Below are positions 1 to 20,014 of a stretch of DNA of 64,000 nucleotides, piece by piece. Below the pieces are notes generated by a model. The model saw nothing but the letters and a program-made list of their open reading frames with translations, did no database searches and was not told the origin of the DNA. The position numbers and the translations under genes were made by a program. Numbering within the stretch: position 1 is the stretch's first letter; each line of letters opens with the position of its first letter. Source of the DNA: an uncultured Elusimicrobia bacterium (GTDB taxonomy: Bacteria; Elusimicrobiota; Elusimicrobia; 2-01-FULL-59-12). The DNA lies in the NCBI GenBank assembly GCA_963702895.1, contig OY969767.1:2208001-2272000 (forward strand). The letters are read 5' to 3'.

Positions 1-1134
1 GACACCGAAAGCATAACAGCCGGCCGAGCAAAAAGAAAAATTCGCGGCGCTGTCATCGAGATAATTGGTTCCGCCACCTGTTGCCGTGCCGGCAGTATTG
101 ATGTTGACGGCATTAAAAACAGTGTCGTTTTTTCGATTGTTCCAATAATAAGAATCCGAAACATGTTGCGGCTGGCCGTCGGGCGATGTGACGGGTGGCG
201 AAATGGAATCGTCATATTCTTCTGAAATGCGAGAGTAAACACTGCCGCTGGTCAGAACCTTGTTCCAAAAGACAAGCGCCCTTCCACCACGCTGACCCAG
301 GAAAGGGGAAGCTGCATACGAACCTCCATTGACGAGATTACCGTAAACCTCAACCCCCATGGTGGCGCTGACCCCGGAAGGTTGATTCCCATGTTCATCA
401 AATAACGGGAAAACGCTTTTAGAGAGATTGTAAGTATTGTATCGATTGGCATATCTCCCTCCGTGACCACCCGTATCCATGGTCTGCGAGGTGTTAAAGA
501 CGTTGTCCTCGTAATATAAATTGTCCGCGGTTCCATATTTAAACGTGAGGTTCGTCCAAGCTGCTGACTGCAACCCCAGGTTGTCAAAATGCACCGCTCC
601 AGTGAAGGTATTGTGATCCACCACGCCATAGACAGGCCCTGAGATCATCATCGTCGCAAGAGGAGTCCATTGGCAGTTCACAAAATTATTATGGTCAATT
701 CTGACTTTATTGACCGGAAAGAATACATTCGTGTTGGCTAAGAGCAAGGCGGGCGAGGTGTTGTTCAGATCAAAAGTAAAACCAGTTACTCTGAAGGGTT
801 CATTCGATGCCGGGTTCGTGGGAAGATAAGAAATCAAATACGAAGTATTTGGCATGTTCGATCGAATGAGTGTATGGCCTATGCCTGTGCCTTGAAAGAT
901 GACACCCTTCTTAATCTCAAGAGTGCTAGTCCATACGCATGAACCGGCGGGCACGAGCACCGTGTCCCCAGATGCTGCTGCCGTAATCGCCGCCTGCACG
1001 TCGGTCTGAGAACAACTGGCGGCGGTGACCGTGGCCGCCTGAACGGCCAACGGCGAAAATAGAAAATAGACAATAGACAGACCAGATAATCCATTTGCTA
1101 TTGTCCATTGTCGCCTTTGGCCGTTGACGTTCAC
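1..1134 (-). CDS. Secreted parallel beta-helix protein, sixth array member (runs off window; absent from ORF track)
   Basis: GTG at 1134 overlaps the TGA of the upstream gene (GTGA 1131-1134). Manual translation gives MNVNGQRRQWTIANGLSGLSIVYFLFSPLAVQA-ATVTAASCSQTDVQAAITAAASGDTVLVPAGSCVW...RIDHNNF...YGTADNLYYEDN, the same module as in the paralogs. Confidence 0.88.
   Translation of the reverse strand, partial: MNVNGQRRQWTIANGLSGLSIVYFLFSPLAVQAATVTAASCSQTDVQAAITAAASGDTVLVPAGSCVWTSTLEIKKGVIFQGTGIGHTLIRSNMPNTSYLISYLPTNPASNEPFRVTGFTFDLNNTSPALLLANTNVFFPVNKVRIDHNNFVNCQWTPLATMMISGPVYGVVDHNTFTGAVHFDNLGLQSAAWTNLTFKYGTADNLYYEDNVFNTSQTMDTGGHGGRYANRYNTYNLSKSVFPLFDEHGNQPSGVSATMGVEVYGNLVNGGSYAASPFLGQRGGRALVFWNKVLTSGSVYSRISEEYDDSISPPVTSPDGQPQHVSDSYYWNNRKNDTVFNAVNINTAGTATGGGTNYLDDSAANFSFCSAGCYAFGV
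1056..1110. repeat. Heptamer-armed hairpin (AATAGAC/A units) inside a signal-peptide coding region
   Basis: aaatagaaaatagacaatagacaga ... tccatttgctattgtccattg, imperfect inverted arms. Confidence 0.65.
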
Positions 1135-4100
1135 TTAATCACCACCACTTGCCCCGTCTTTTTGGCTCCGCCGTCGGCCTTCAGGACATACACGTAAATC
1201 CCGGAAGCCACCCGGTCGCCGCTCTCATTGGTCAGGTCCCAGGTGATGGAGCTGCTTGAGGTGGGCAGCGTCTTCACGTGATGCCCCGAGACCGTGAAGA
1301 TCTTGATCTCGGTATCGATCGTGAGACTGTCAAAAGTGACGGACCTCGCCGCGTGCCGGTCGCTCCGCCAAGGGTTGGGATAGACCCGGACCTGATCGAG
1401 ATTGGCTGACACCAGCGTTACCTGCGCCGAAGCCGGCGCCGAGGCCGTGCCCGCCGCGTCATAGGCGGTGACCGTCACTACGTAAGGACCAAGGTCCAGT
1501 CCCGCCGTGGCGAGATTCGCCTGCGGGGTCTGGGTGGTGAAGGAAGCGGAGCGGGCTGCGCTCGGTGCATGAACCGGCGAGCCGGCGACAGGGCGAGCCG
1601 GCGTCTGTGATGTTTCGCCGATTCCCCGATTCGCCGGTGCGCCGATTCGGTCAATGGGATTGAACGTCCACCCAAAATACGCCGCCGGTGTCGAACCGGT
1701 GTAGCCAGCCGAGACTTGAGCGTTCACCGGCAGATAAGCAGGCAGATCGAGCGTCGGCGTGGCGAGCCCCCCCGGCGGAGGAGGTGGAGGCGGCGGGGGC
1801 GGCGGCAGGACGGGGCCATAACAGTTGTTGGCATTAAAGTTCAGGACACCATTGGTTCTGGATGTGGTCTCAAAGCACACGCGTGCTGGAATTTTATAGA
1901 CATGACCGCCCACGCCGCTCACATTGCCACCGGTCACGTCTGGCCCAATCGAGGGCCAGGGGATCGCGGTGGGCCACCAGCTCGGCTTGGCCGAAAGATA
2001 AAGCGAGGCCGGTAGATCGTTTGTTGATGGAACAGGGTTGGAGAACTGGCTGAGTCCCGAGGGGACTTCGCTGGCGAGAAAGCGGGAGGTCCCGTTCACA
2101 GTGTCGTAGTTCCCCCAGCGAAGCAGTGTGGATTTGACGAGCGGATCTTCGAAGGAAGCGGGCAAGTTCCCAGAATCCCCCAACCGGAAAATCGACGTCT
2201 CGGGGCTCGTGAAGGAGGGGGTGACCGACTCGTAATTGGTGTGGTAGCCCGATCTTCCCAGCACATTACCGATGATGTTGAAAAAGCGGGTGAAGGAGTA
2301 GAGATTCACCGGCACGGTCTGAGCGGTCTTACCGGTCTCCCAGCCAATGAAATAATTTCGGAAGGCTGTAATGAAATGGTGGGTGCCGTGGATCACGTCC
2401 GCCGTGAAACCGGGCCCTTCATTGCCTTCATGCAGAATATATTCCGTGCCCGCCGCATGGGCGTAATTGCTGCCCTGCATCCAGTTGGCGGAGGCTGCGT
2501 AGTAATCATCGAACGCATAGTTGTAGGCTTCCACCAGGCCCGAGGCGGAGCCGCCCACCATCAAGGGCCCTGCGATATGATGGAAAATGTTGTTCTCCAC
2601 CAAATTGTCGGACCCCATATACGATTCAACCCCATAGCTTTGCGAGGCGGCATGCCGGGTGCCGTAGAAATAGCTATCACGCACCGTACAGTGCGCCGAC
2701 TCGTAGAGCCAGACGTGATTGCGGTCAGAGTTCAAATCTCGGACATTCTTGACCCAGCAGTCGTAGCACCAGATGAGGTAGATGTCTGAGCGGTTCCCGG
2801 ACGTGTTGAAGGTGTTATCCACAGACAGGTCTTCCACGCCGTTGCCGGAGGAGAACCCGCTCGAGTTCCCCCACCAGGCATGCGGGCTCTGTGACGCTCG
2901 CCAGTTCGGCATATAGAGACCCGGCGAGATGGTGACCAAGTTCCCGGCGATCGCGCTGACCTTGGTGAACTGCTGCTGAGCTCGATTGGGTTGGGCCCCG
3001 CCAGCCGGTCCTTGGTCCGCGCAGACACCTCCGGTGTCGCAGGCAAACACAGCTCCGGTATCCGCCGGATCATTGAGCTGGTCCAGAACGATCACCATCC
3101 CCACCGATAAACCGGTCGTATGGCTGAGCGTGATTTGGGTGGTTCCCTTGGCATAACCCGCTGTCCAGTTCGCGGTGTAGCGGGGGCTTTCCACGTAGTA
3201 GCTGTTGTCGGATGCTGCAACGCAGATATTGGCGCCCATCCCGCGGCACCGCGAACCGGACAGGAAGTTCAAGTAGGTTTTATCCGCCCCCGCCCCGCGT
3301 AGGGTCACGTTGTTCTTGCCGTTGAAATCAATGCCTTCCGAAAGGGTATAGGTCCCCGCAGGGATGTAAACGACCTGACCACTGGGGCAGGCTTGGATGG
3401 CGCTGTTGATCTCGGCGGCGCTGGCAAACGGAGGCAGGGTCGCGCAGATCGTGGTGCGGTTGGGAATCCCTCCGACCACGCCCGCCTGGCTCCAGTCGAT
3501 GGCCCGGGCGGGATCGAGGATGCCGGACCAAGGGATACCCGGCGGCGAAGTGGGCGCCTGCGTCGTAGCGCTGGCCGCGGCCGAGAGCGCCGAGACATTG
3601 CCGGCCGCATCATAAGCCGTCACGCGGTAGCTGTAAGACGTCGAAGACACAAGGCCCGTGCTTATATAGGAAGTCCCACTGGTGACGCTCGAGATCCAGA
3701 CCCCATTGCGATAAATCCCGTAGCCTGCCACCCCGACCGCATCGGTCGAGGCGGTCCAGGAAAGATTGATCGCTGTCGAAGAGACAGCCACCGCCGCAAG
3801 GCCCGTCGGCACGGATGGTGGGGTCGTGTCTGGCGGAGGGGGTGCTCCACTTGTTGCGGCGACGTAGAGGGTTTTGCTTGCGTAAAGCGGGTAAACCCTC
3901 ACGTCCAGCGATCCGCCGCCCACAGAGCAAGTGTAAGGACTTGCGTTGTCGACCGTGGTCGGGATGCGGTCTTCATAGCAAACCACGAACCGGACAAGCT
4001 CCGCATCGGAAGGCGTTACGGTCACCACCCCGCCCGACTGAGAATACGTCGCTGAGAGATCGTAGCCGCCAGGCCTATAGGAATACGCTCCGATGTCCGG

Positions 4101-5813
4101 TGCCGCGTTAGAACCATAGTAGACAGGTTCCCCGTTGGCCCAGGTAAACGGCGCCATAACCGTAATGGCATCACCGGAGATGGCAGATATTCTGACGGTG
4201 TCGTCGCCCACCGTGATGACATCGCCCACCACAAGATTGCCGCCATACTGAGTTAAATTAAGGTTATCCGCTCTGAAAAATCCGCCGCCATTGGCAAGCA
4301 CGTTAAAGGTGGTTCCTGTGCCGCCGCCACTGGTCGCGGTGAGCGGCCCCCCTCTCCCTCTGGCGCCGGAATGACTTTGCAGATGAAAGTCATCGTTGGC
4401 GTAATCCACAAACTGGGGGTTGGCGTTCCATTGGCCGTGCAGTTGAGTAGAAAATGGAGGAGCGAAGGTGACCGCTCCCTGCGGATCGTATCCCAAGTTG
4501 TAATCTATTTGATAGGTCATGCCCGCGCGATTACAACTGTTGTCTAAACTTAAACAGTACACCTCAAGATTGGACGCAGCACTATTTCCCCAACTCTCAT
4601 ATTCCAGGTTGTTGAGGATATAGGCATGATTCACCAAGGTGCCATACCAAGCCAGCCCATAGCGAACAGTGGGGTTGTACTCTTGTAAGTCAGCAGCCGT
4701 ATTATTGTAATACCGTATGTGGGTAATCGGCCCGACGGTGACCTGATTGATTCCCACGCCGCCGCTGCTCACATTGTGCCAGACGTTGCGGCGGAAGATA
4801 TTTTCCGTCATGGGGCCGCAGGCACCGGTGCAATTCCCGGGTTGGCCGTGACTGATCTGGGCCGTATGTTCATCCCCGGCGTTGCCGACACCCACTTGGA
4901 AGTGGCTCTCAATCAAACTGTTGCTCCAGCCCCGATTGTTTGAGCCGGTCTGAAAAACATCGGAATGACCACCCGAAGCTTCACTGAAATCGTGCGTGTA
5001 ATTTCCAATCCATCGGTTATGGGAGCCCATGATCAAGAATCCGTCGGGATGGGAATTATAAACTTCGTTATAGGCGATCAAACTATTGTCTCCAACAGTG
5101 CCGACAGCCATGCCGGAACCGTTGCCGATGCCGAAATTCGCTAAGGTGTTGCCGATGATGAGGCTATTATTAATCACTCCGGTGCAGCCGTAGCCGCATC
5201 GGATGCCATTACCTATCCCATTTCGAATGGTGTTGTTCCAAAACTCTAAATAGCTAACGGTACCGCATATCAAAACAACCCCACTTTGCATGTTGCAGGA
5301 TCCTTGATCCGAATCCATGACAAAGCCTATGACACGAATGAAGCTGTTGCCGGTAAAATCAAACCCGCAGACCGTGACGGCTCCGTCAGCCATGAACGTA
5401 ACGGTGTTCGCCACGGATGTGCCATTCACCGCCGGTGTAACGCGCTCTTCATACGTTCCGGGCTGAACGCGGACCACATCGCCCGCGCTGACGTGATCGG
5501 CCGCCCAGTCGATGGTCCGCCACGCCCCGCCCGAGGTGTTCGTCAATCCGGTGTTGGTGTTGTTCCCATCGGTGCGGACATAATAGGTGGCCGCCTGCGC
5601 CGCCGGAGCAGCCAGCAGCAAGAGAAGGCTGTATCGGAGTAACGGGGTAACGGTGTATCGGAGTAACGGAGTAACGGTGTATCGGGGTAACACCTCTAAG
5701 AGCGTAATGTGTTTACGTTGCTGTGACTCCGATACTCCGATACGCCCCGCCATCACATCGTTGGCGGGCCCGCCGTGATGTAGTGGCGGGCGATACGCCG
5801 ATACGAAGTTCAC
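1131..5813 (-). CDS. Secreted protein: beta-helix module, FN3, second pectin-lyase-like beta-helix module, Pro linker, Ig-like domain and FlgD-Ig/T9SS-A-like CTD
   Basis: Signal peptide LLLLLAAPAAQA. Asn-rich beta-helix repeats ending DIGAY. FN3 motif DTTPPSVPTGL...YRVTAYDAAGN. C-terminus VRVYPNPW...WDLTNESGDRVASGIYVY...KKTGQVVVIK. Confidence 0.88.
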   Translation of the reverse strand: MNFVSAYRPPLHHGGPANDVMAGRIGVSESQQRKHITLLEVLPRYTVTPLLRYTVTPLLRYSLLLLLAAPAAQAATYYVRTDGNNTNTGLTNTSGGAWRTIDWAADHVSAGDVVRVQPGTYEERVTPAVNGTSVANTVTFMADGAVTVCGFDFTGNSFIRVIGFVMDSDQGSCNMQSGVVLICGTVSYLEFWNNTIRNGIGNGIRCGYGCTGVINNSLIIGNTLANFGIGNGSGMAVGTVGDNSLIAYNEVYNSHPDGFLIMGSHNRWIGNYTHDFSEASGGHSDVFQTGSNNRGWSNSLIESHFQVGVGNAGDEHTAQISHGQPGNCTGACGPMTENIFRRNVWHNVSSGGVGINQVTVGPITHIRYYNNTAADLQEYNPTVRYGLAWYGTLVNHAYILNNLEYESWGNSAASNLEVYCLSLDNSCNRAGMTYQIDYNLGYDPQGAVTFAPPFSTQLHGQWNANPQFVDYANDDFHLQSHSGARGRGGPLTATSGGGTGTTFNVLANGGGFFRADNLNLTQYGGNLVVGDVITVGDDTVRISAISGDAITVMAPFTWANGEPVYYGSNAAPDIGAYSYRPGGYDLSATYSQSGGVVTVTPSDAELVRFVVCYEDRIPTTVDNASPYTCSVGGGSLDVRVYPLYASKTLYVAATSGAPPPPDTTPPSVPTGLAAVAVSSTAINLSWTASTDAVGVAGYGIYRNGVWISSVTSGTSYISTGLVSSTSYSYRVTAYDAAGNVSALSAAASATTQAPTSPPGIPWSGILDPARAIDWSQAGVVGGIPNRTTICATLPPFASAAEINSAIQACPSGQVVYIPAGTYTLSEGIDFNGKNNVTLRGAGADKTYLNFLSGSRCRGMGANICVAASDNSYYVESPRYTANWTAGYAKGTTQITLSHTTGLSVGMVIVLDQLNDPADTGAVFACDTGGVCADQGPAGGAQPNRAQQQFTKVSAIAGNLVTISPGLYMPNWRASQSPHAWWGNSSGFSSGNGVEDLSVDNTFNTSGNRSDIYLIWCYDCWVKNVRDLNSDRNHVWLYESAHCTVRDSYFYGTRHAASQSYGVESYMGSDNLVENNIFHHIAGPLMVGGSASGLVEAYNYAFDDYYAASANWMQGSNYAHAAGTEYILHEGNEGPGFTADVIHGTHHFITAFRNYFIGWETGKTAQTVPVNLYSFTRFFNIIGNVLGRSGYHTNYESVTPSFTSPETSIFRLGDSGNLPASFEDPLVKSTLLRWGNYDTVNGTSRFLASEVPSGLSQFSNPVPSTNDLPASLYLSAKPSWWPTAIPWPSIGPDVTGGNVSGVGGHVYKIPARVCFETTSRTNGVLNFNANNCYGPVLPPPPPPPPPPPGGLATPTLDLPAYLPVNAQVSAGYTGSTPAAYFGWTFNPIDRIGAPANRGIGETSQTPARPVAGSPVHAPSAARSASFTTQTPQANLATAGLDLGPYVVTVTAYDAAGTASAPASAQVTLVSANLDQVRVYPNPWRSDRHAARSVTFDSLTIDTEIKIFTVSGHHVKTLPTSSSSITWDLTNESGDRVASGIYVYVLKADGGAKKTGQVVVIK
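1571..1648. repeat. Octamer-armed hairpin in frame in the C-terminal Ig-like domain
   Basis: GAACCGGC/GAGCCGGC units facing TCGCCGAT/TCCCCGAT units. Confidence 0.75.
5631..5804. repeat. Octamer-armed palindrome (CGGnGTAW; 24-bp higher-order unit) with nested CCCGCC..GGCGGG hairpins, encoding the protein leader
   Basis: gtatcggagtaacggggtaacggt-type unit x2 plus a partial unit; opposite arm actccgatactccgatac; encodes RYTVTPLL repeats. Confidence 0.85.
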
Positions 5814-8800
5814 TTAATCACCACCACCTTCCCTGTCTTTTTGGCTCCGCCTTCCGCCTTCAGGTGATAGACATAGATCCCCGAGGCCACCCGGTCGCCG
5901 CTTTCATTGGTCAGGTCCCAGGTGACGGAGCTGCTTGAGCTCGGCAGCGTCTTCACATGGTGCCCCGAAACCGTGAAGATCTTGATCTCGGTATCGATCG
6001 TGAGACTGTCAAAAGTGACGGATCTCGCCGCGTGGCGGTCGCTCCGCCAAGGGTTGGGATAGACCCGCACCTGATCGAGATTGGCTGACACCAGCGTCAC
6101 CTGCGCCGATGCCGGTGAAGAGGCGCTGCCGGAGGCGTCATGGGCGGTGACGGTCACGAGGTATGTTCCCAGGTCAAGGTTCTGCGCGGCGAGGCTTGCG
6201 ACCGTTGAAGCGGTGGTGAAAGAGGCGCTGGGAGCATGTCCTGCGCCCAGCGTCCCGCGTCCCGCGTCTGGCGTCTCGCGTCCGACGTCAACCGCTGTCG
6301 GTGCTGGACTCGGGACCCGGGACTCGGGACTCGAGACTTGCGACGCGGGACTCGAGACTCGGGACTCGGGACTCGAGACTTGCGACGCGGGACTCGAGAC
6401 TCGGGACGCGGGACCCACCATCGACGTGAACGTCCAACTGAAATACGCCGGCGCCACAGACCCGCCGTAGCCGGCGCGCACTTCGGCGTTCACCGGCAAA
6501 TACGCGGGCAAATTCAGTGTCGGTGTAGCCAGGCTGCCGCCGGGCGGAGGCGGCGGAGGCGGCGGCGGTGGAGCGACTGTTGGGCAGTTACCGGAAGGGC
6601 AATACTCATAGGCTCCGATGTCCCAGGCACTCCCTTGTGGGCGGACGATGTTATCCTTGTCGTAGTTAAAACCAGCCTGAGGAACACCCACATTGATCGC
6701 AGGACTCACGGACTGAAGATGAAAATCGAAACGCGCAGGATCAACGAAGGCTGGGTCCTGATTGATGAGATCGGTAGGAGCGTAACGATTGGGGTAACCA
6801 AGCCGGTTTAAGAGGTTATGGCCGGACGAAATAATGACACCACCCGTCGCGCCGTCAGCCCAGTAGTTGGATCCAGCGTTGTAAAAGATATTGTTCTCAA
6901 CGATGCCGCTCGCGCCATCACTATAACCTATGCCGTGATACATGAGTTCAGCAAAGACATTGTTGTAGGCGTCGACATGGGTCACTTGCTCGACGCAGAG
7001 TCCCCACGCTCCTCCGGGCTGGCCGTCGGCAAAGGTTCCATGGAAGATGTTGTTGCGGAAGGTGAGGTGGGAGGAGTTGTGGTGGAAGGACGCTTCTGCC
7101 ATGAGTCCCTGATGGAAACTGGAACAGAAGTTCCCCTCAAAAATGATATTTCTGGCGTATTCCCCGTTGTTGTCGTACGTCTGGAAACAATCCACATGCG
7201 CCGCGGCGATCTCGGTTTGCAGGGTTCCGTGGAAATAGTTGTTTCGAAAGAGGATGTTTTCGCCAAAAAACCGCGAATAGTCCGAGTCCCCACTGCCCGG
7301 ATTAATTAAACGCTCGACTTCATTGTTTTCGATCACCCAATCCACCCCGCTGGCGACAATGCCCATCCCCGGTCGATAAATGCGGTTGTTGGCGATTTTG
7401 ACTCCTCTTTTGTAAGGCGGACTCCAAGCCCCCACAATCCCAGAACCGCTGTCATAAATGTAATTGTCCATCACTTCGACATAATCGCTGCCAACATAGA
7501 CGCCTTGCGTCTCATCCCAACCGGTGAGACCAAGAGTCGAAATGTTGAAGCCCTCAAGGCGCAGATAATTCGCGTTACGCGTGTTGAAGCCCTTCAGAGT
7601 GACCGATCGCCTCGGCTCGGCCCGGAAGGAAATACGAGCCCCTTCCTGCCCCGAGGCGCCGGACGGGAACCGAATTCGCTCCGGATAATTCCCCGCTTTG
7701 ACCACGACTGTTTCACCCGCCTTGACGGTATTGGCGGCCTTTTGAATGGTTTTCCAGGGCAAGACATCGGTCCCAGGATTGCTGTCGCTGGCGGAAGCAT
7801 GGTTCTGGTCGACATAGTAGGTGTTGGCAACGAGGGGGTGGGGGTAGGTGTAGGGGGTGTAGTAAGCAATCCAGGTGTTCGGCGCGGTGCATTGGTAGAG
7901 TGTGCCGGAAATCAGACTTGCCGGATTGGCACCGACCCTGCCGGTGAGATCCGTGCAGGATTGGTCCGTGGCCCAATAGCCGACACCGGGAGCGCAGGTT
8001 GCGGGGCGAGAGGCCAGCGTGCCGCACCCGACACCGGTGGCTCCATCGAATCCCGATTCCACGAACTTAAACCAATGGACATTTTCTGTTACTGTATAAC
8101 CGCAAGATGAATTGCAGTCTTTCATCCCCCTGCTATAGAGATTCGTTACTGCGCCTGTCATGCTGCCTTTTCGATTATTCCACGCATAGGTATCACTGAT
8201 GTGTTGCGGCTGGGTGTTCGTTGAAGGGCAATAAACACATTCACAGGATTCAATGGGATTTGTCGATGATCCCTCGGAATCCCTGATCCCCCAGCCGCTA
8301 AAACCGCTGGAGGTATAATTATTGAAAATAAGATGTTTGCCGCCTCTGAAATCGGTGTAACCATCAACTAAGGTAATATGATTGCCGTACATCTCTGACC
8401 CAAAACAAGACCGATAAGAACAAATACCGCTGCTCCCTGCGGCATCCCCATGCTGGTCAAACAACGGGTAACTTCCAGGGGAAGTGGCAACGATGGTGTT
8501 GTAGCGAAAAGCGTACCGATTCCCATATTGGCAATCGGCAACAACTTGACTGGCCTGAATATTGTTATCTTCCAGATAGAAATTGTCTGCTGTGCCGAAC
8601 GTCAAACCTGGCCAATTATCCCACCAATCCTGATCATCACCGCTGGAGAATCGGATGGGATAGCTGGTCCCGCTAAAGGTGTTGTGATCGGCGACGCCCC
8701 GATAACCGTTGATCGTGAGGGCCTGATCATGGGAATTGAGAAAAACATTATGATCGATTCGGATCTTGTTCTGAATGGTGAGACCAGAGCTTGAATAAGC

Positions 8801-9346
8801 CAGGACGATTCCACCGGTCTTATAATTAAAGTTAAAGGTAAAACTGGATAGCCTGAAGGCCCAATTTTGTGAAAAATCCGATGGCCGATAAAAAATTAAT
8901 ATAGGGCCTGTCCAGTCATAAATACCCGTGTAATCAGCAGTGATTGTAATATTGCCCGCCCCCGGCCCTACGATGTTCAGTCCTTTACTTATACACAGAG
9001 CAGCCCTTGTATTAGAGCCTGCGCAAGTACGGTAGGTGCTCCAGGTGGCACTGCCTGCCGGGATGATGACGGTATCTTCCGGCGCCGCCGCGTCAACGGC
9101 CGCCTGCACGTCCGCCTGACTGCAGCTGGCGGCATTGATCGTGGCCGCCTGCGCCGCCGGAGCAGCCAGCAGCAAGAGAAGGCTGTATCGGAGTAACGGG
9201 GTAACGGTGTATCGGAGTAACGTAGTAACGGTGTATCGGAGTAACGGAGTAACGGTGTATCGGGGTAACACCTCTAACAGCGTACTGTGTTCACGTTGCC
9301 GTGACTCCGGTACCCCGATACTCCGATACCCCGTTACGGAAATCAT
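5810..9346 (-). CDS. Secreted protein with two beta-helix modules (second DUF1565-like) and FlgD-Ig/T9SS-A-like CTD
   Basis: Signal peptide, AASCSQADVQAA module, YYVD..SDSNPGT..PWKTIQKAA module, DIGAYE, poly-Pro linker, shared C-terminal domain. Confidence 0.88.
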   Translation of the reverse strand: MISVTGYRSIGVPESRQREHSTLLEVLPRYTVTPLLRYTVTTLLRYTVTPLLRYSLLLLLAAPAAQAATINAASCSQADVQAAVDAAAPEDTVIIPAGSATWSTYRTCAGSNTRAALCISKGLNIVGPGAGNITITADYTGIYDWTGPILIFYRPSDFSQNWAFRLSSFTFNFNYKTGGIVLAYSSSGLTIQNKIRIDHNVFLNSHDQALTINGYRGVADHNTFSGTSYPIRFSSGDDQDWWDNWPGLTFGTADNFYLEDNNIQASQVVADCQYGNRYAFRYNTIVATSPGSYPLFDQHGDAAGSSGICSYRSCFGSEMYGNHITLVDGYTDFRGGKHLIFNNYTSSGFSGWGIRDSEGSSTNPIESCECVYCPSTNTQPQHISDTYAWNNRKGSMTGAVTNLYSRGMKDCNSSCGYTVTENVHWFKFVESGFDGATGVGCGTLASRPATCAPGVGYWATDQSCTDLTGRVGANPASLISGTLYQCTAPNTWIAYYTPYTYPHPLVANTYYVDQNHASASDSNPGTDVLPWKTIQKAANTVKAGETVVVKAGNYPERIRFPSGASGQEGARISFRAEPRRSVTLKGFNTRNANYLRLEGFNISTLGLTGWDETQGVYVGSDYVEVMDNYIYDSGSGIVGAWSPPYKRGVKIANNRIYRPGMGIVASGVDWVIENNEVERLINPGSGDSDYSRFFGENILFRNNYFHGTLQTEIAAAHVDCFQTYDNNGEYARNIIFEGNFCSSFHQGLMAEASFHHNSSHLTFRNNIFHGTFADGQPGGAWGLCVEQVTHVDAYNNVFAELMYHGIGYSDGASGIVENNIFYNAGSNYWADGATGGVIISSGHNLLNRLGYPNRYAPTDLINQDPAFVDPARFDFHLQSVSPAINVGVPQAGFNYDKDNIVRPQGSAWDIGAYEYCPSGNCPTVAPPPPPPPPPPGGSLATPTLNLPAYLPVNAEVRAGYGGSVAPAYFSWTFTSMVGPASRVSSPASQVSSPESRVSSPASQVSSPESRVPSPAPTAVDVGRETPDAGRGTLGAGHAPSASFTTASTVASLAAQNLDLGTYLVTVTAHDASGSASSPASAQVTLVSANLDQVRVYPNPWRSDRHAARSVTFDSLTIDTEIKIFTVSGHHVKTLPSSSSSVTWDLTNESGDRVASGIYVYHLKAEGGAKKTGKVVVIK
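6250..6416. repeat. Heptamer-armed hairpin (GCGTCCC / GGACTCG) in frame in the C-terminal Ig-like domain
   Basis: About 5 GCGTCnn units facing about 16 nGACnCG units; encodes SRVSSPASQVSSPE. Confidence 0.85.
9185..9337. repeat. Octamer-armed palindrome encoding the protein leader
   Basis: Three 24-bp units; opposite arm actccggtaccccgatactccgataccccgttac. Confidence 0.85.
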
Positions 9347-13185: not shown

Positions 13186-16043
13186 TTTATCACCACCACT
13201 TTCCCCGTCTTTTTGGCTCCGCCTTCGGCCTTCAGGTGATACACGTAGATCCCCGAGGCCACACGGTCGCCGCTTTCGTTCGTCAGGTCCCAGGTGACCG
13301 AGCTGCTTGAGGTGGGCAGCGTCTTCACGTGGTGCCCCGAGACTGTAAAGATCTTGATCTCGGTATCGATCGTGAGACTGTCAAAAGTGATGGATCTCGC
13401 CGCATGCCGGTCACTCCGCCAGGGGTTGGGATAGACCCGCACCTGATCGAGATTCGCCGAGACGAGCGTCACTTGGGCTGAAGCAGGCGAGGAAGCATTG
13501 CCCGCCGCGTCAAAGGCTGTGACCGTCACCACGTAAGGCCCGAGGTCCAGTCCCGCCGTGGCGAGATTGGCCTGGGGGGTGCGGGTGGTGAAGGAAGCCG
13601 AAGGTGCCGGCTGCGCTCTAGGCTCTAGGCTCGAGGCTCCAGGGGAAGAAGAAGTGCTGTTGCCTAGAGCTTGGAGCCTGGAGCCTGGAGCGACACTTAC
13701 AGGGGTGAAGGTCCAACTGAAATAGGCCGCGGGCGTCGCGCCGGTGTAACCTGCCGTGATCTGGGCGTTGACCGGCAGATACTCCGGCAGATTGAGCGTC
13801 GGCGTGGAGAGGCTCCCAGGCGGTGGAGGCGGTGGAGGGGGTGGAGGAGGTGGAGGAGGCGGCGAAGTCGCCGCCTGGGTCGTCGCGCTGGCCGCGGCCG
13901 AGAGCGCCGAGATATTCCCGGCCGCATCATAAGCGGTCACGCGGTAGCTGTAGGTGGTCGAAGCCGAAAGGCCCGTGCTCGCATAGGACGTGCCCGAGCT
14001 GACGCTCGAGATCCAGACCCCATTGCGATAAATGCCGTAGCCTGCCACCCCGACCGCATCGGTCGAGGCGGCCCAGCTAAGATTGATCGTAGTGGAAGAA
14101 ACGGCCACCGCCACCAGGCCCGTCGGCACCGAAGGGGGGGTCGTGTCCGGCGGAGGGGGTGCTCCACTTGTTGCGGCGACGTAGAGGGTTTTGCTCGCGT
14201 AAAGCGGGTAAACCCTCACGCCGAGCGCTCCGCCGCCCACAGAGCAAGTGTAAGGACTTGCGTTGTCGACCGTGGTCGGGATGCGGTCTTCATAGCAAAC
14301 CACGAACCGGACAAGCTCCGCATCGGAAGGCGTTACGGTCACCACCCCGCCCGACTGAGAATAGGTCGCGCTCAAGGTGTAGCCGCCCGCCTTGTAGGGA
14401 TACGCCCCGATGTCGGGTGTGGCATCGTGACCGAAGTACACCGCCTCCCCGTTGGCCCATGTGAAGGACGGCGTAACGGTGATGGCGTTTCCTGAGATAC
14501 TCACCACGGTCACGACGTCGGTGCCGACCGTGATCGTATCGCCCACCACCACATTGCCGCCATATTGCGTGATGGTCGTATCATCATCAGAAAAGTAGCT
14601 GGCGTCACCCACCATGAACGTCGTGCCCGTATTGTTGGCGGACGTGACCGTCGTGAGCGGACCACCTGCATTTCGTGCGGGTGAGCCAGACTGAAGCGTA
14701 AAATCTCGAGTTGCCGCATTGGTCACTAATGGATTCGTATTCCGGAGAGAATGCGCTTCGGCGTTGATTGTACTCGCGTAATTGATCGATCCGCCTATAT
14801 CGTAAAAAATATTGTAGTCATGCACGGCGGGAGTATCATCATAGACACCGACTGGATTCGTCCCTGGCCACCACGCTTGGTGCCAGATATTGTTCAAGAC
14901 CCCTCGGCCAGCCGCGACGTTACTACCACGGTCATAAGTGACATAATGCGAGGCATATGCGATGGTTTCGTGATAAATTTTGAGGAAAGCCTGTCCGTCC
15001 GCAAGCCCAAAACACTGCCCGCCTGCGTTGCCATTACTGGACCAGACGTTTCGCCGGAATATCGTATAGGCGTCCAAGCTGGCTGAATTGGTTTCGATAT
15101 TGGTACAGTGATGTTCACTTCCGGACTCATCGGCGTAGAAATTCCCCTCATACAGTGAGTGGCCCAAGCCAATAGAATCCTGACCGGATTGAATGAAATC
15201 GGTATGAGATGAAGGAGCCGCATTCACATTATGGCTATAGTTGTTCAGTAGCCTATTTCTTTGCCCAAAGAGATAGATGAAGTCAACCTCGGGGGTGTCG
15301 GATTCGTTATAGGCAATGACGTTGCTGTTGCCACGAACCTGAAAATCTTTGAATGCGGAATGCTTAATCACATTGCCGATAAAGAGACAGTTGTTGGATT
15401 GGTATAGCCTAGCTCCGTTGTCCGTTCTTATGGAATCTCCTTCAAAGTTCTGTATGGTGTTATTCCATATCTCAACATAATCAGCATTTTGCAGGTAGAT
15501 CCCATCGTTTCTGGTATTTCCGCCTTCGACGATAAAACCTATCACTCGAATCCAATCGCCAGTAATGACCCATCCGAAATTCGTCACAGACCCATCAGCC
15601 ACGAAGGTGATGTAGTTTCCGGCAGACCCCGAGCTACTGGCCGTGACTACCTCTGCGTAAGTGCCCGCCTGCACCCGGATCACATCTCCCGCCGCGACGT
15701 GATCGGCCGCCCAGTCGATGGTCCGCCACGCCCCGCCCGAGGTGTTCGTCAATCCGGTGTTGGTGTTGTTCCCATCGGTGCGGACATAATAGGTCGCCGC
15801 CTGCGCCGCCGGAGCAGCCAGCAGCAAGAGAAGGCTGTATCGGAGTAACGGGGTAACGGTGTATCGGAGTAACGTAGTAACGGTGTATCGGAGTAACGGA
15901 GTAACGGTGTATCGGGGTAACACCTCTAAGAGCGTAATGTGTTTACGTTGCTGTGACTCCGATACTCCGATACGCCCCGCCATCACATCGTTGGCGGGCC
16001 CGCCGTGATGTAGTGGCGGGCGATACGCCGATACGAAGTTCAC
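13182..16043 (-). CDS. Secreted beta-helix plus FN3 protein with FlgD-Ig/T9SS-A-like CTD
   Basis: Leader and FN3 block nearly identical to those of 1131..5813; long poly-Pro linker; shared C-terminal domain. Confidence 0.88.
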   Translation of the reverse strand: MNFVSAYRPPLHHGGPANDVMAGRIGVSESQQRKHITLLEVLPRYTVTPLLRYTVTTLLRYTVTPLLRYSLLLLLAAPAAQAATYYVRTDGNNTNTGLTNTSGGAWRTIDWAADHVAAGDVIRVQAGTYAEVVTASSSGSAGNYITFVADGSVTNFGWVITGDWIRVIGFIVEGGNTRNDGIYLQNADYVEIWNNTIQNFEGDSIRTDNGARLYQSNNCLFIGNVIKHSAFKDFQVRGNSNVIAYNESDTPEVDFIYLFGQRNRLLNNYSHNVNAAPSSHTDFIQSGQDSIGLGHSLYEGNFYADESGSEHHCTNIETNSASLDAYTIFRRNVWSSNGNAGGQCFGLADGQAFLKIYHETIAYASHYVTYDRGSNVAAGRGVLNNIWHQAWWPGTNPVGVYDDTPAVHDYNIFYDIGGSINYASTINAEAHSLRNTNPLVTNAATRDFTLQSGSPARNAGGPLTTVTSANNTGTTFMVGDASYFSDDDTTITQYGGNVVVGDTITVGTDVVTVVSISGNAITVTPSFTWANGEAVYFGHDATPDIGAYPYKAGGYTLSATYSQSGGVVTVTPSDAELVRFVVCYEDRIPTTVDNASPYTCSVGGGALGVRVYPLYASKTLYVAATSGAPPPPDTTPPSVPTGLVAVAVSSTTINLSWAASTDAVGVAGYGIYRNGVWISSVSSGTSYASTGLSASTTYSYRVTAYDAAGNISALSAAASATTQAATSPPPPPPPPPPPPPPPGSLSTPTLNLPEYLPVNAQITAGYTGATPAAYFSWTFTPVSVAPGSRLQALGNSTSSSPGASSLEPRAQPAPSASFTTRTPQANLATAGLDLGPYVVTVTAFDAAGNASSPASAQVTLVSANLDQVRVYPNPWRSDRHAARSITFDSLTIDTEIKIFTVSGHHVKTLPTSSSSVTWDLTNESGDRVASGIYVYHLKAEGGAKKTGKVVVIK
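13614..13692. repeat. Heptamer-armed hairpin (GCTCTAG / CTGGAGC) in frame in the C-terminal Ig-like domain
   Basis: gctctag gctctag gctcgag gctccag ... ctagagc ttggagc ctggagc ctggagc. Confidence 0.85.
15837..16034. repeat. Octamer-armed palindrome encoding the protein leader
   Basis: Same as 5631-5804 with one extra 24-bp unit. Confidence 0.85.
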
Positions 16044-19000
16044 TTAATCACCACCACTTTCCCCGTCTTCTTGGCTCCGCCTTCCGCCTTCAGGTGATAG
16101 ACATAGATCCCCGAAGCCACCCGGTCGCCGCTTTCGTTCGTCAGGTCCCAGGTCACTGAGCTGCTTGAGCTCGGTAGCGTCTTCACGTGGTGTCCCGAGA
16201 CCGTGAAGATCTTAATCTCGGTATCGATCGTGAGACTGTCAAAAGTGACGGACCTCGCCGCGTGCCGGTCGCTCCGCCAGGGATTGGGATAGACCCGGAC
16301 CTGATCGAGATTGGCTGACACCAGCGTCACCTGCGCCGATGCCGGTGAAGAGGCGCTGCCGGAGGCGTCATGGGCCGTGACGGTCACGAGGTATGTTCCC
16401 AGGTCAAGATTCTGCGCGGCAAGGCTTGCGACCGTTGAAGCGGTGGTGAAAGAGGCGGAGGGAGCTCCGAAAGCGCGTCCGACGTCCGACGTGCGACGTC
16501 CAACGTCAACTCCAGACGTTTCATATGAGCCGCTTAGACGTCGGACCCGCCACACATCGGGCGGGCGCCTGTCGTGTGGAGCCTCGGACGTCGGACGGCT
16601 CACCGGTTCGCCGGTTCGGCCCACCTGAGTGAACGTCCAACTGAAATACGCCGGCGCCACAGACCCGCCGTAGCCGGCGCGGATCTCGGCGTTCACCGGC
16701 AGATAAGCCGGCAAGTTCAAGGTCGGGGTGGCCAGGCCGCCTGGTGGCGGAGGGGGCGGCGGAGGCGGAGGGGGTGGCAGGCCCGTTCTGAGCGGGTGGG
16801 GATAAGGATAAGGCGTATAGGAGGTTGACCAGGTGTTGGGCGCGGTGCATTGGTAGAGCGTGCCGGAAATCGGACTTGCCGGATTGGTACCGACCCGACC
16901 GGTGAGATCCGTGCAGGCTTGATCCGTGGCCCAATAGGCAACACCGGGCGTGCAGGTCGCCGGACGCGCGGCCAGCGTGCCGCACCCCATCCCCACAGTC
17001 CCATTGAAACCCGCCTGATGATTCCAATAATCAACATTTTCCGTAATGGTGTAAGGCGATCCGACCGCGGCATCGGCGCAGAAGTCCAAGCCTTTGGTCA
17101 TGGGGCGGAGAATTCCCCCACCGTAGTTCGCCCATACATACGAATTTTGAACATGCTGGGAGTACGCCGGGGAAGCGGGGCTTTGACAAGAATCACATGA
17201 ATACTGTGCATAGTACGGCTTGGCATAAGAAGAATCACTGGAGTTGTAAAACATTAACTGCCAACTACCCCTATGCGCCATCCAGGTGGAAAAATCCGGG
17301 CTATTGACGATCTTATTCCCGTAGTACTCGGATTTGATCGTGGACCATTGCTCACAAGAATCCTGATTAGGGTTGCAAGAACCGGCCACCGAGGGGCTGC
17401 AATTGGAATACCCGCAACAGCTATAACCCGGGCTCACTGACATGCTTTGCAATCCGTGATTGACCCACAGGCCCGAAAGGCCGGTGGCATTGGCCAGATC
17501 CGTGGTGTTGTACCGATAGACATAACCCGGCGCGCCCTGCCCGTGGTCGGTCAGTCCGCCCTCTATGGCCTGGGTAAAACGGATGGTGTTGTCCTCGATG
17601 AAGAAATTCGTCCCGGTCCCATACTCCCTCGGAACTAGCGCCCAGGAGACCGCGTCTCTCCCAAACGTTCTGATCACGTAGCCGACATTGATGAAATGAT
17701 TCAAATAGGCCACGCCATAAACCGGCCCGCTCACAACCACACCCGTATGTAAGGAATTCTGAAACGTGTTGTGGTGGATTTTGATATTGGACATGACTTT
17801 GGAGGTGCTTCCATTCCCTACGTAGAGAAGGCCTTGGTGCTTCGAAAGTGACTGGCCGTCCAAGGTAAATCCCGTGATTTCAAACGCCTCATTATGGGTC
17901 TGTGCCGTTGCATCCGGAATATAAGCGATCTGACCATGGTCGGAGGGTCCGTTCAGGGTAATCGTGGTGGGCCCCCCGATGCCACCCTGCAATTTGATGC
18001 CTTGGGTGAGGGAAAGCAATCGATTATACCCGCCGTAAGAAGTCTCGTTTGACCAGGTGCATGAACCGGCCGGAACGATGATCGTGTCCCCTCGTTCCGC
18101 AAGGTTCACAGCGGCCTGGACATCCGCCTGCGAACAGCTGGCAGCGCTGATCGGAGGCCGAACAAATTCATGGGCTCCCATATCCGGCGCCGTACCATTA
18201 AGCACCTCCCGGCCGCTCGAATCCTTATACAACCACACCGGCGCGTTGGCCGCCCAGCTGAGCGGGGATTTCAGCGTGATCGTGTTGGCCGCATAGTTGA
18301 TCGAGGCGATTGGCGCGCGATTGCCCGCACTCCCCACGGCAATCCAGTCCGCGAAGAAATTCACGTTCCGCGCCAGGTCGGACCCCCACGACCCATCCTG
18401 AAAATATAACGCATCGTTCACTTTCACGGTGATCGAGTTGCTTCCGGAGCCTACGGTGGTCGTTAAAGGGGCGCCCTGATCGATCGCAGGCGAATCCGAT
18501 TGAAGGCGTAAATCGGGCAGGGTCTTGCTGGTGGGATCGTCGAGAGAAGGATTGAGGAATTTAGGGTTGCCTTTGACGGTTGTCCAGTTATTTTCGATGG
18601 TCGCGATCCCCGGATAATCGGCTGGATTCAGTCCCGTGTCGACCGTGATATCAAGGCCCGTGTAGAGAGTCCCGGGATAGAGGTCCGGCAAACTCAGGTA
18701 GTACGAAAAATTATCGTAGACCAGATTGTTTTTGAGGACATTTTCGAGGGTCGCCGAATAAAGGGTGATCCCGGCGAGCTTCCCGGGGCATGTCGAGCAT
18801 CCCGGCTGCGTCTTCTGCATGTAAGGGTAGGTCCACCCGTTGTGGAAAAAGGTGTTGTTGTAGACCCGGTTGTTGGTCGAGCCGGTCCCGCCCGCGCCAA
18901 TCTTGCCGTAGGAGGCGTACTTAAAATAGAGTCCCGCCTGCTGGCCATTGTAAATGGAGTTGAACCGGACGATGTTTTTCGGCGCCGCCAGAGACAACAC

Positions 19001-20014
19001 AGCCTCCCCCGGATTGTTCGGGTTGGCGGAAGAATGGCCCATTCGATTACTCTCCATCAACACATAAGTCCCGTCGCGTCCGAAATCTTCCGACAACTGC
19101 ATGCCTCGGTGACCGTATTTCCCGTTCGGCATGGGCGGATAGCCGCAGGTGCCGCCAGAAGTGTCCGGTATCCAGCCTTCGTTGTGTAGCACGTTGTTGC
19201 GGAATACGGTGAAGGCGCCGTAATTGTCAAAGAGCGCGTGCCCCGCGTACTCCAGCATATTGTCTTCGATCGTGTTGAAGTTGTTATCACCGGTATAGGG
19301 TGGGTACGACGGATTCGGCGGGTCCCCGATGCGCACCAGATCACGCCCTTCATAGCATTGGGTTGGATCATTCGCGGTGCGGTGGGCCTTGGAAAACGTA
19401 TTGTGGTGGACCCAGTTGTGGGTGCTGTAACAACTCATCACGCTCCCGCCGCTGCACCAGCTGCCGATGAAAAAGCCTTGGACAACATCCTCGCCGGTCT
19501 CGCTCCGGAAAACGCAGCGGGCGACTTCGTTATAGCTGGACGAATGGATGATCATGGCCCAGCGCGCGAGGTTGAGAAACGTGATCCCATCGACCTTGAT
19601 GTATCGATTTTTCGAAAGCACCAGACCCCAGCCGCAGTCAAGGCATCCAGTCCCTTTGATCACCGGCGTTTCACCCGGAGCGGCGGCGAAGGTAATGCGG
19701 GAATTCTTGTCCGCGCCGGAATTCGCCGGTGAAATGCCGGCCTGGCCCGGAGTGGACAATAAATACGTGCCTCCTTTGAGGTAAACCAGATCGCCCGCAA
19801 CCGCCTTGGCATTGGCGGTGGGCAGTGAACAATAGTTGCTTCCCGGATCGCTCTCGCTCTGGCAGCTCGCCCAGGAGGATGTCCCCGTTGGGCTCACCCA
19901 ATAGGTCGCCGCTCTAAGCTCACGGCTGCCCGCAAACAACAGCCCCGCGCATAAAGCGGCGCCGAACACCCAACGGGTGCCTGACCTATGAGATTGAGAT
20001 GTCAATTGGCGCAT
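16040..20014 (-). CDS. First gene of the array: secreted protein with two beta-helix modules and FlgD-Ig/T9SS-A-like CTD
   Basis: Ordinary signal peptide with no repeat leader; internal AASCSQADVQAA module; shared C-terminal domain. Confidence 0.88.
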   Translation of the reverse strand: MRQLTSQSHRSGTRWVFGAALCAGLLFAGSRELRAATYWVSPTGTSSWASCQSESDPGSNYCSLPTANAKAVAGDLVYLKGGTYLLSTPGQAGISPANSGADKNSRITFAAAPGETPVIKGTGCLDCGWGLVLSKNRYIKVDGITFLNLARWAMIIHSSSYNEVARCVFRSETGEDVVQGFFIGSWCSGGSVMSCYSTHNWVHHNTFSKAHRTANDPTQCYEGRDLVRIGDPPNPSYPPYTGDNNFNTIEDNMLEYAGHALFDNYGAFTVFRNNVLHNEGWIPDTSGGTCGYPPMPNGKYGHRGMQLSEDFGRDGTYVLMESNRMGHSSANPNNPGEAVLSLAAPKNIVRFNSIYNGQQAGLYFKYASYGKIGAGGTGSTNNRVYNNTFFHNGWTYPYMQKTQPGCSTCPGKLAGITLYSATLENVLKNNLVYDNFSYYLSLPDLYPGTLYTGLDITVDTGLNPADYPGIATIENNWTTVKGNPKFLNPSLDDPTSKTLPDLRLQSDSPAIDQGAPLTTTVGSGSNSITVKVNDALYFQDGSWGSDLARNVNFFADWIAVGSAGNRAPIASINYAANTITLKSPLSWAANAPVWLYKDSSGREVLNGTAPDMGAHEFVRPPISAASCSQADVQAAVNLAERGDTIIVPAGSCTWSNETSYGGYNRLLSLTQGIKLQGGIGGPTTITLNGPSDHGQIAYIPDATAQTHNEAFEITGFTLDGQSLSKHQGLLYVGNGSTSKVMSNIKIHHNTFQNSLHTGVVVSGPVYGVAYLNHFINVGYVIRTFGRDAVSWALVPREYGTGTNFFIEDNTIRFTQAIEGGLTDHGQGAPGYVYRYNTTDLANATGLSGLWVNHGLQSMSVSPGYSCCGYSNCSPSVAGSCNPNQDSCEQWSTIKSEYYGNKIVNSPDFSTWMAHRGSWQLMFYNSSDSSYAKPYYAQYSCDSCQSPASPAYSQHVQNSYVWANYGGGILRPMTKGLDFCADAAVGSPYTITENVDYWNHQAGFNGTVGMGCGTLAARPATCTPGVAYWATDQACTDLTGRVGTNPASPISGTLYQCTAPNTWSTSYTPYPYPHPLRTGLPPPPPPPPPPPPGGLATPTLNLPAYLPVNAEIRAGYGGSVAPAYFSWTFTQVGRTGEPVSRPTSEAPHDRRPPDVWRVRRLSGSYETSGVDVGRRTSDVGRAFGAPSASFTTASTVASLAAQNLDLGTYLVTVTAHDASGSASSPASAQVTLVSANLDQVRVYPNPWRSDRHAARSVTFDSLTIDTEIKIFTVSGHHVKTLPSSSSSVTWDLTNESGDRVASGIYVYHLKAEGGAKKTGKVVVIK
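16475..16620. repeat. Heptamer-armed hairpin (ACGTCCG / TCGGACG) with nested CCACAC..GTGTGG element, in frame
   Basis: gcgtccg acgtccg acgtgcg acgtcca ... tcggacg tcggacg. The nested part (16546-16581) resembles the reverse complement of 28070-28111. Confidence 0.75.

Follow-up and report, generated by a model that had tools for sequence, protein, structure and literature searches.

Families of exported proteins with conserved ends and variable middles are known from several pathogens. In the Hop, Bab and Sab proteins of Helicobacter pylori and in rgpA, kgp and hagA of Porphyromonas gingivalis, recombination between copies is the accepted cause of this pattern; the polymorphic membrane proteins of chlamydiae, encoded by clustered genes, join exported beta-helix passengers to a common C-terminal export module. 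Here we describe a locus of related build in an uncultured Elusimicrobia bacterium, a tandem array of genes whose products carry diverse passenger modules in front of one C-terminal sorting domain (CTD) of type IX secretion systems (T9SS). The stretch analysed (the window) is 64,000 nucleotides long, corresponds to bases 2208001-2272000 of a single 2,724,539-base contig (OY969767.1; without N, GC 57%), and contains the promoter-proximal half of the array, the right half by map. The best explanation, which we consider rather probable, is that the array is a recombining family of T9SS-tagged beta-helix genes with conserved ends and passengers of separate origin.

Like the Hop and rgpA/kgp/hagA families, the array has 5' and 3' ends that are alike and middles that are different. 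Unlike them, its copies are contiguous and mostly joined by 4-base overlaps, its middles are whole domains of different families with deep ancestry rather than allelic variants, and no role in antigenic variation is indicated. From the chlamydial proteins and other autotransporters it differs in its export module, which is a T9SS-type beta-sandwich and not a barrel; no autotransporter barrel family was found among the Pfam and NCBIfam matches of the array proteins, and a weak protease-domain match occurred only in D1, a neighbouring protease gene.

The tail most resembles that of T9SS type A cargo in Bacteroidota (for example P. gingivalis RgpB, PorZ and PorU), with which the array shares a C-terminal sorting domain, a beta-sandwich some 80 residues long, Ig (immunoglobulin)-like domains before it, hydrolase-like cargo, and many cargo genes per genome. 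The array differs from such cargo in that its host belongs to Elusimicrobiota, outside the Fibrobacteres-Chlorobi-Bacteroidetes (FCB) group, in that no GldK, GldL, GldM or PorU catalytic domain was found and the matches to SprA and PorV lie below their cut-offs, and in the concentration of 13 of its 19 cargo genes, with nearly alike tails, at a single locus. Excerpts of two papers place the T9SS in the FCB group (PMC11205867, PMC11611037). In open-access full text no paper was found that deals with a T9SS in Elusimicrobia or with CTD tails evolving in concert: in excerpts of PMC7031533 and PMC12204202 the terms 'Elusimicrobia' and 'type IX secretion' stand unrelated to each other, and PMC7323717, which combines 'type IX secretion' with 'concerted evolution', concerns machinery components in the portion available.

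The array and its common tail

The array consists of 12 tandem minus-strand genes, A1 to A12, running from genome position 2228014 down to 2185276 (43 kb); five of these genes, A1-A5, lie complete in the window, and A6 is the one cut by its edge. A tblastn search with the tail as query returned 12 consecutive copies, 89-100% identical, in one 43-kb stretch of the 2.72-Mb genome, a concentration that excludes a chance origin of the array. The first-pass annotation, made from the letters of the window, had proposed at least six tandem genes, an array that is real and was understated. By window position, all on the minus strand, A1 (16040..20014, 1324 aa), the first array gene, has an ordinary 35-residue signal peptide, beta-helix B1 and an internal module A; A2 (13182..16043, 953 aa) has a type 2 leader, beta-helix B2 and an Ig+FN3 unit; A3 (9343..13185, 1280 aa) and A4 (5810..9346, 1178 aa) both have a type 1 leader, module A and beta-helix B; and A5 (1131..5813, 1560 aa) has a type 2 leader, beta-helix B2', Ig+FN3 and an RHGA-type beta-helix module C. 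All five continue with a poly-proline stretch, an Ig-like domain and the CTD. The N-terminal 378 codons of A6 (1..1134; the gene continues to genome 2205328) comprise a GTGA-overlap start, a 33-residue signal peptide and module A.

Each array product has a putative Sec-type signal peptide and one to three passenger modules, the order of which varies: A-B in A3, A4 and A6, B-A in A1 and A10, module A alone in A11 and A12, B-FN3 in A2, B-FN3-B in A8, B-FN3-C in A5, and B-B-FN3 in A7. The FN3 unit is accordingly present in A2, A5, A7 and A8. Module A, marked by the sequence AASCSQADVQAA and about 436 aa long, occurs in seven copies; the first-pass annotation had correctly seen this AASCSQ module as N-terminal in three window genes and internal in one, and three further copies lie outside the window. 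The copy of A4 (436 aa) occupies 7832..9139, and the others in the window lie at 11629-12978 (A3), 16784-18151 (A1) and 1-1029 (A6, cut by the window edge), all on the minus strand.

All 12 array proteins end in a type A T9SS CTD, as judged by matches to TIGR04183 above the cut-off in a genome scan; in the seven array proteins scanned individually the scores are 32.7-35.6 bits against a cut-off of 23 (7 of 7), and the D1 tail scores 25.2 bits. Across the genome 19 sites exceed this cut-off, 12 in the array and one in D1. The Pfam model PF18962 (Por_Secre_tail) stays below its cut-off in the array proteins (17-22 bits against 27). In A4 the CTD of 86 codons lies at 5813..6070 and the equivalent CTDs are at 1134-1391 (A5), 9346-9603 (A3), 13185-13442 (A2) and 16043-16300 (A1), all on the minus strand. 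Nucleotide identity over these last 258 nt is 84-95% (median 90%; about 88-100% in protein), so that the shared end of the genes, initially described as about 300 bp nearly identical, is confirmed as shared and was overstated in its likeness; in a self-comparison the 3' ends of the window genes are 86-94% identical over 369-426 nt.

When the last 250 residues of A4 are modelled with AlphaFold (22 aligned sequences; mean predicted local distance difference test score, pLDDT, 78), they show an Ig-like domain (residues 14-47 and 113-158, pLDDT about 90) that is interrupted by a disordered stretch (51-109, pLDDT about 39), followed by the CTD as a beta-sandwich (166-249, pLDDT 90-95). The top Foldseek matches of the CTD are PorZ (5m11, E 3.2e-7, 25% identity), PorU (6za2) and the RgpB CTD (5ag8). 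A linker and an Ig-like domain precede the CTD in 10 of the 12 proteins (A1-A10); the linker is poly-proline in eight (A1-A6, A8 and A10), reduced to a short proline run in A7, and free of such a run in A9.

Separate histories of tails and passengers

The DNA of the tails, and in part that of the signal peptides, descends from a recent common ancestor and shows traces of recombination among the copies. Synonymous divergence (dS) among the 12 CTDs spans 0.15-0.63, with a median of 0.33; the median nonsynonymous divergence (dN) is 0.046. Of their informative site pairs, 458 of 946 are incompatible, and a permutation test of the pairwise homoplasy index (PHI) type yields p-values of 0.0035 (the 12 CTDs) and 0.0005 (the terminal 369 nt of A1-A9). 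The array tails, all 12, fall into a single group in a tree of 24 tails (support 91/89, recovered in 92% of the bootstrap trees), the sister of which consists of three tandem genes on one congener contig, a group of their own with support 100/99. This congener locus (L021, G003:C81, 2-8622, plus strand) has three tandem CTD genes with a near-uniform tail of its own and, at one junction, an ATGA overlap; no match to its passengers was obtained from the passengers of the present array.

At the other end of the genes, inspection by eye showed a hydrophobic core and then A-x-A|AT in all 12, the passenger starting with 'AT' after A-x-A in every gene except A9. One signal peptide can stand on unrelated passenger families, and one family can stand under different signal peptides: the type LLLLLAAPAAQA is found on module A (A3, A4, A11, A12) and on B2 (A2, A5, A8), and the type IVYFLFSPLAVQA on module A (A6) and on B1 (A10). 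The pairwise sharing of leaders noticed in the first-pass annotation was borne out by self-comparison (90.3% over 393 nt for the genes starting at 5813 and 16043, and 96.8% over 248 nt for those at 9346 and 13185). The same applies to the internal block around FN3, which is larger than claimed: the Ig+FN3 block of A5 (3541..4253, minus strand) has 85.6% DNA identity over 715 nt to 13858-14570 in A2. A second shared block, running from GCGTL to RPATC, is likewise real (84.3% over 198 nt, 7832-8029 against 16790-16987), and forms the C-terminal 68-residue sub-domain of module A, ending YTPYxYPHPL and specific to the family. It had been offered as a mark of swapping between genes, a use that is ruled out by its conservation throughout the family, 74-81% identity being kept even with copies from other phyla.

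The passengers, in contrast to the tails, are ancient lineages with separate roots, from families that occur widely: a few recent duplicates apart, like passenger modules are only 22-47% identical in protein. For module A, relatives amount to 301 stretches in a one-genome-per-species collection and occur, among others, in Aminicenantes, Saccharibacteria and other members of the candidate phyla radiation (CPR), WOR-3, Planctomycetes, Acidobacteria, Smithella, DPANN and methanogen archaea. In a module-A tree of 70 rows the seven array copies need six changes and only those of A1 and A10 are sisters; the A3 copy pairs with a copy from a metagenome-assembled genome (MAG) of Iainarchaeota at 58% identity (support 100), against 31% identity between the A3 and A4 copies. 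A single clade of the seven array copies was rejected by an approximately unbiased (AU) test (lnL difference 480.6, p-AU 1.6e-104) on 32 of the 70 rows, namely the seven own copies and 25 outside copies from 25 hand-picked loci, nearest neighbours included, under LG+G4. The tail tree and the module-A tree, the latter of the kind that the first-pass annotation had proposed as a check, are incongruent, with polyphyletic module-A copies and tails in one group. In other phyla and in archaea there are also module-A homologues that occur two to four together at a locus, as adjacent genes or domains (L041, L043, L044, L049, L075 and L081), and tandem multiplication seems to be a habit of the family.

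Tails and passengers also differ in their occurrence among relatives. The tail is present in 39 of 41 searched genomes of the class (own genome included), and a comparison with 14 nearest relatives having the tail, another check suggested at first pass, left the passengers of A1 and A4 essentially unmatched: that of A1 was found in 0 of 14, and that of A4 in 1 of 14, where the match covers only residues 713-835, the last 123. The proposal of a recombination-driven family is thereby upheld in its incongruent histories and in the recombination signal of the tails, and lacks support insofar as it implied a library still being shuffled. An export tag and its cargo with demonstrably different histories in one operon-like array make a clean natural case.

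Overlap starts, leaders and hairpin repeats

Nine of the 11 junctions in the array are ATGA or GTGA overlaps of 4 bases, including all 5 in the window, as the first reading had stated; the exceptions are A6/A7 and A8/A9, the latter with a gap of at least 34 nt. At A6/A7 a Phd/ParE toxin-antitoxin pair stands on the opposite strand and parts the array into two blocks. It comprises a Phd/YefM antitoxin (97 aa, PF02604, E 4e-15) and a ParE toxin (108 aa, PF05016, E 2e-16) on the plus strand at genome 2204705-2205297 (L002:8705-9297), about 2.7 kb left of the window start, and the first 230 or so codons of the A7 open frame are a false extension, the shadow of this pair. In each overlap the start codon is made up of the last base of the final lysine codon (AAA/AAG) of the preceding gene and the TG of its TGA; because most genes start at such an ATG or GTG, their translation is probably coupled. 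A6 and a congener gene pass from a 4-base overlap directly into an ordinary signal peptide, which suggests that the overlap start is the ancestral arrangement.

In eight genes the hydrophobic core is separated from the overlap start by 36-67 additional codons, and these long leaders are largely composed of 8-base units in inverted runs, which fold into a hairpin. In A4 the hairpin (9176..9342, minus strand, in frame), built of GTAACGGA-type 8-base units, has a folding energy of -65 kcal/mol (z -4.7), with 0 of 200 shuffles as stable; equivalent leaders lie at about 5630-5809 (A5), 13023-13181 (A3) and 15836-16039 (A2), also on the minus strand. All eight long leaders have 0 stops in the frame of the signal peptide, as against 0-3 in each other frame, their lengths differ by 24-nt steps (1, 2 or 3 units), and A10 has no other usable start codon; translation from the overlap codon is therefore thought likely. 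In-frame hairpin repeats in signal-peptide leaders, and in the domain loops described below, matter for gene calling and for signal-peptide prediction.

It is possible, though we lean the other way, that the long leaders are untranslated, translation starting at an internal GTG or a non-canonical codon near the signal peptide and the hairpin being an intercistronic structure like the repetitive extragenic palindromic (REP) elements, which would set expression or mRNA stability; equally tentative is the corollary that the overlaps are a by-product of a '...K-TGA' ending followed by a stop-less repeat. An overlap ATG or GTG does arise automatically from AAA/AAG plus TGA, the -65 kcal/mol hairpin begins 9 nt after the ATG, and the second arm of the 8-base repeat is stop-free in every frame. 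An in-frame GTG occurs mid-leader in 7 of the 8 (codon 26 in A3, A4, A11 and A12, codon 41 in A2 and A5, codons 37 and 43 in A8), and were it the true start in these seven genes, coupling would be abolished. This account is harder to reconcile with the open signal-peptide frame of all eight leaders, with a copy number that changes only by 24 nt, with the lack of an alternative start in A10, and with the use of the overlap start before an ordinary signal peptide in A6 and the congener gene. The wider genome speaks on both sides, with 97 of its 265 repeat clusters in no long open frame and 83 inside one.

The type 2 leaders carry, in addition, a palindrome of about 50 nt, read in frame as PPLHHGGPANDVMAG (5745-5800 and 15975-16030, minus strand). 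Its 40-nt core has three more copies in the genome, on the plus strand near 503492, 717542 and 728970, with at most 6 mismatches.

The second site of repeats is the disordered loop in the Ig-like domain. In A4 it is filled by a 7-base-unit hairpin (6238..6414, minus strand; -106 kcal/mol, z -4.0, pLDDT about 39), and inserts at the same site are found at 9783-9947 (A3), 13615-13691 (A2), 16476-16507 (A1) and 1614-1649 (A5, 8-base units), all on the minus strand. The 7-base-unit hairpin makes up the loop in A3, A4, A6, A7 and A8, other unit types do so in A1, A2 and A5, and in A9, A10 and D1 the loop is short. Such repeats are common in this genome, which has 265 clusters of tandem 7- or 8-base units, many as inverted pairs: besides the 83 inside long open frames, 61 are near the 5' end and 24 near the 3' end of such a frame. 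The locus accounts for 18 clusters: 16 belong to genes of the array, one follows A12 shortly downstream, and D1 contains one (examples in the window are 5630-5691, 6238-6414, 9184-9337 and 9783-9947). In-frame hairpin repeats of 7- and 8-base units have thus settled just after eight overlap starts and in one loop of the Ig-like domain, where they would be tolerated as floppy peptide. The suggestion that the junction DNA is a dedicated capture site is not upheld, this DNA being mostly an in-frame hairpin repeat of a kind dispersed throughout the genome.

Heptamer repeats in convergent pairs are described from Xanthomonas and Nostoc in an excerpt of PMC4692102. The present repeats resemble these foldback repeats in their inverted runs of 7- or 8-base units, in their long hairpins and in that they can be in frame; they differ in occupying two fixed sites per gene of a family, after the start codon and in the Ig loop, and in that different units stand at one site in different copies.

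Passenger function, origin of the array and its flanks

Matches to several Pfam families show beta-helices among the passengers. The B and C modules match Beta_helix, NosD and RHGA, and the B modules also DUF1565; above cut-off are PF13229 in A1, A4, A6 and A8, PF07602 in A4 and A6, PF05048 in A8 and PF12708 in A5, as well as fn3 and Pect-lyase_RHGA_epim. The A9 passenger has no family match in Pfam, and a PDB sequence search with module C of A5 gave nothing meaningful (best E 0.47). Module A matches no Pfam, NCBIfam or PDB entry by sequence (best PDB E 0.42), and an AlphaFold 2 model (53-sequence alignment, pLDDT 90.6, predicted TM-score 0.92) depicts it as a right-handed beta-helix. In VIA-align, 50 beta-helix entries match this model with Z from 25.6 to 17.2, headed by Geobacillus virus E2 ORF18 (7chu, Z 25.6) and followed by an alginate epimerase/lyase (8ja4, 24.5), AlgE4 (2pyg, 24.4) and the lyase RbmB (23.2), and then by polygalacturonases and phage depolymerases; its Foldseek E-values are weak, around 6e-4. 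Module A shares its fold with AlgE4, PL6 lyases, RbmB, GH28 and tailspike depolymerases (Z 19-25.6 over 236-312 aligned residues) and differs from them in sequence (7-16% identity) and in its family-specific C-terminal sub-domain. Five residues, E190, R212, H230, Y251 and N274, are invariant among 53 homologues and spaced about one rung apart, which suggests a predicted catalytic groove.

The glycan-active beta-helix reading put forward at first pass is consistent with these Pfam matches and with the predicted fold. That the passengers are instead adhesins or structural fibres without catalysis seems doubtful to us, while having some points in its favour: the beta-helix adhesin PfbA is among the structural matches (Z 20.3), there are weak NCBIfam matches to a Leptospira surface-protein family, and no characterised enzyme in the PDB is matched by sequence. 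Set against these, nearly all top structural matches are polysaccharide epimerases, lyases, hydrolases or phage depolymerases, and homologues from different phyla keep a row of unvarying charged or polar residues, one to each rung, such as a catalytic groove would be expected to have. Module A is a large unnamed beta-helix family, and as such a target for carbohydrate-enzyme discovery.

Candidates for the export machinery are found as matches below cut-off. A SprA-like frame of 1813 codons (genome 1187754-1190987, minus strand) has four collinear matches to TIGR04189 (63, 49, 36 and 33 bits, cut-off 200), and 11 PorV-like matches score 19-69 bits against a cut-off of 250, several of them beside CTD genes and one in the window at 61732-62508 (plus strand). 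This genome, from outside the FCB group, may have a CTD-dependent export system that is reduced or divergent, and the array suggests that type A CTD-dependent export exists beyond that group, with an unusual component set.

On the reading of a recombining family, Sec would carry the proteins over the inner membrane, a SprA-like and PorV-like outer-membrane apparatus would recognise their common tail, and beta-helix domains that act on or bind polysaccharides would thereby be displayed or released. One tail and signal peptide would have been moved onto different passengers, or kept alike on these, by homologous recombination (or gene conversion) acting on the conserved ends and by insertions and deletions at domain borders; modules would have been inserted, lost or reordered at the domain borders, and most genes would be expressed as coupled cistrons. 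A small genome could in this manner build a varied set of extracellular enzymes through recombination at conserved ends.

Several points weigh against this reading. A tail dS of 0.15-0.63 means that the last homogenisation was not recent or continuous, and one burst of duplication, followed by replacement of passengers, could explain the same values. The GC content at third codon positions (GC3), moreover, is 0.76-0.84 in the CTDs, whereas the genome averages 0.669 with a 95th percentile of 0.761; such values hint at codon constraint that would lower dS somewhat. In the module-A tree the 63 outside rows are the best matches to the array copies and the tree searches were quick, and transfer may have gone into the lineage or out of it. 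The relatives are mostly fragmented MAGs, in which arrays with repeated ends are often unassembled, and 'not found' is therefore weak; signal peptides were judged by eye. As to export, the tail is the one feature from which a T9SS is deduced: the PorU catalytic domain was not found, all 19 of 19 NF033707 matches falling in model positions 950-1095, the CTD part, and no match to GldK, GldL or GldM was obtained in the genome, in a search whose GldM and GldL controls were silent too and whose sensitivity is thus unproven. The beta-helix fold by itself, finally, does not tell an enzyme from an adhesin, PfbA too reaching a Z of 20. For the high GC3 of the CTDs, GC-biased gene conversion and strong codon selection are the candidate causes.

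A bolder form of the recombining-family account, which we hold to be unlikely, would treat the cassette formed by the second half of the Ig domain, the CTD, the overlap and the signal peptide, bracketed by hairpins in eight genes, as a portable unit of homology and perhaps a breakage-prone hotspot, through which the lineage would repeatedly equip distantly acquired beta-helix enzymes (archaeal and CPR ones included) with its own tail in a coupled operon, a 'secretion-tag capture array'. If true, this would be a capture array in a phylum without a described T9SS and apparently without its known motor.

Plain ancient tandem duplication, with fast divergence of the passengers and tails kept alike by the constraint of the machinery, is disfavoured and appears improbable. 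The tails are indeed under strong purifying selection (dN/dS about 0.14), and there are ordinary recent duplicates: A2 and A8 are 93% identical over 703 aa, A1 and A10 63-65% over their whole length, and A5 and A7 75-78%. The composition of the passengers also agrees with it. Passengers had been described as more AT-rich than the linkers, which is correct for raw GC (0.52-0.59 against 0.65-0.68) and does not extend to GC3 (0.58-0.75 against 0.65-0.72), the high raw GC of the linkers being due to their proline, alanine and glycine content; in GC3 the passengers are uniform and do not stand out from the genome, lying in or nearly in its 5-95% range (0.553-0.761). This rules out low passenger GC as a mark of recent import and leaves no sign in composition of a recent capture of foreign modules. 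Duplication does not account for a median tail dS of only about 0.33 beside like passengers at 22-47% identity, nor for the rejected clade of module-A copies, the variable order of modules (A-B, B-A, B-FN3-C, B-B-FN3), the single signal peptide on unrelated modules or the recombination signal in the tails.

Highly improbable, in our view, is a phase-variable contingency locus, in which slippage of the 7- or 8-base units would switch genes or detach the sorting domain. The unit lengths are not multiples of three, 7.6-10.6 units stand in the 24-nt-repeat arm of the A2-A5 leaders and 15.6 in the A3 and A4 loop, and the repeats occupy the two sites where a frameshift matters most. The units, however, are imperfect (77-81% at a period of 7 or 8, against 90-95% at 24 and 42), all eight leaders and all loop inserts are in frame with copy differences in multiples of 24 nt, the same repeats occur in housekeeping contexts throughout the genome, and no indel was seen in one public DNA run at depth 2-4. 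That run, in which 12% of the sampled words occur, contributed 48 short pieces (the longest listed of 372 nt) and left 8 of 30 bins without coverage, which is too sparse for gene order, copy number or repeat-length variants; four apparent joints among its pieces follow from the tails being shared and from A10, a gene outside the stretch compared with the run. No public RNA run was listed for the sequence. An assembly artefact, in which fewer genes were wrongly expanded or joined via shared ends of about 0.4-0.8 kb and about 90% identity that are hard for short-read assemblers, is scarcely credible, as the passenger of each gene is long and unique, differences of 5-16% make the shared ends distinguishable, the genome is one 2.72-Mb contig without N, and short contigs from the public run (possibly the source sample) match unique parts, one of them at an A10-type joint of signal peptide and passenger.

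The locus as a whole spans 47 kb. On its left flank are genes for tRNA-Gly(tcc) and tRNA-Thr(ggt), together with a copy of tuf and a gene for a DDE transposase (features at L106:12829-14175, L001:333-807 and L106:14887-16083, all on the minus strand), and on its right flank an IS110-family transposase gene (24335..25378, minus strand), a setting of transposases and tRNA genes that is typical of variable genome regions. Synteny of the tuf neighbours was uninformative, since the tuf matches of the relatives are the rpoBC-fusA-tuf copy, another locus.

Between A1 and the divergent protease gene D1 lies an AT-rich intergenic region (20015..20392, GC 0.35), likely a promoter region. The top promoter-like match is at 20043-20016, in a scan of 1000-20500 that is at chance level overall, for promoters (12 against 10.5 expected) as for terminators (14 against 17.3 expected). 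D1 itself (20393..24109, plus strand, 1238 aa) combines a subtilase S8 domain, an M11-like metalloprotease, PKD/Big_2, an Ig-like domain and a related CTD, and its tail (Ig and CTD) is about 55% identical to the array tail. As a processing or companion protease, D1 may process the array products or accompany them.

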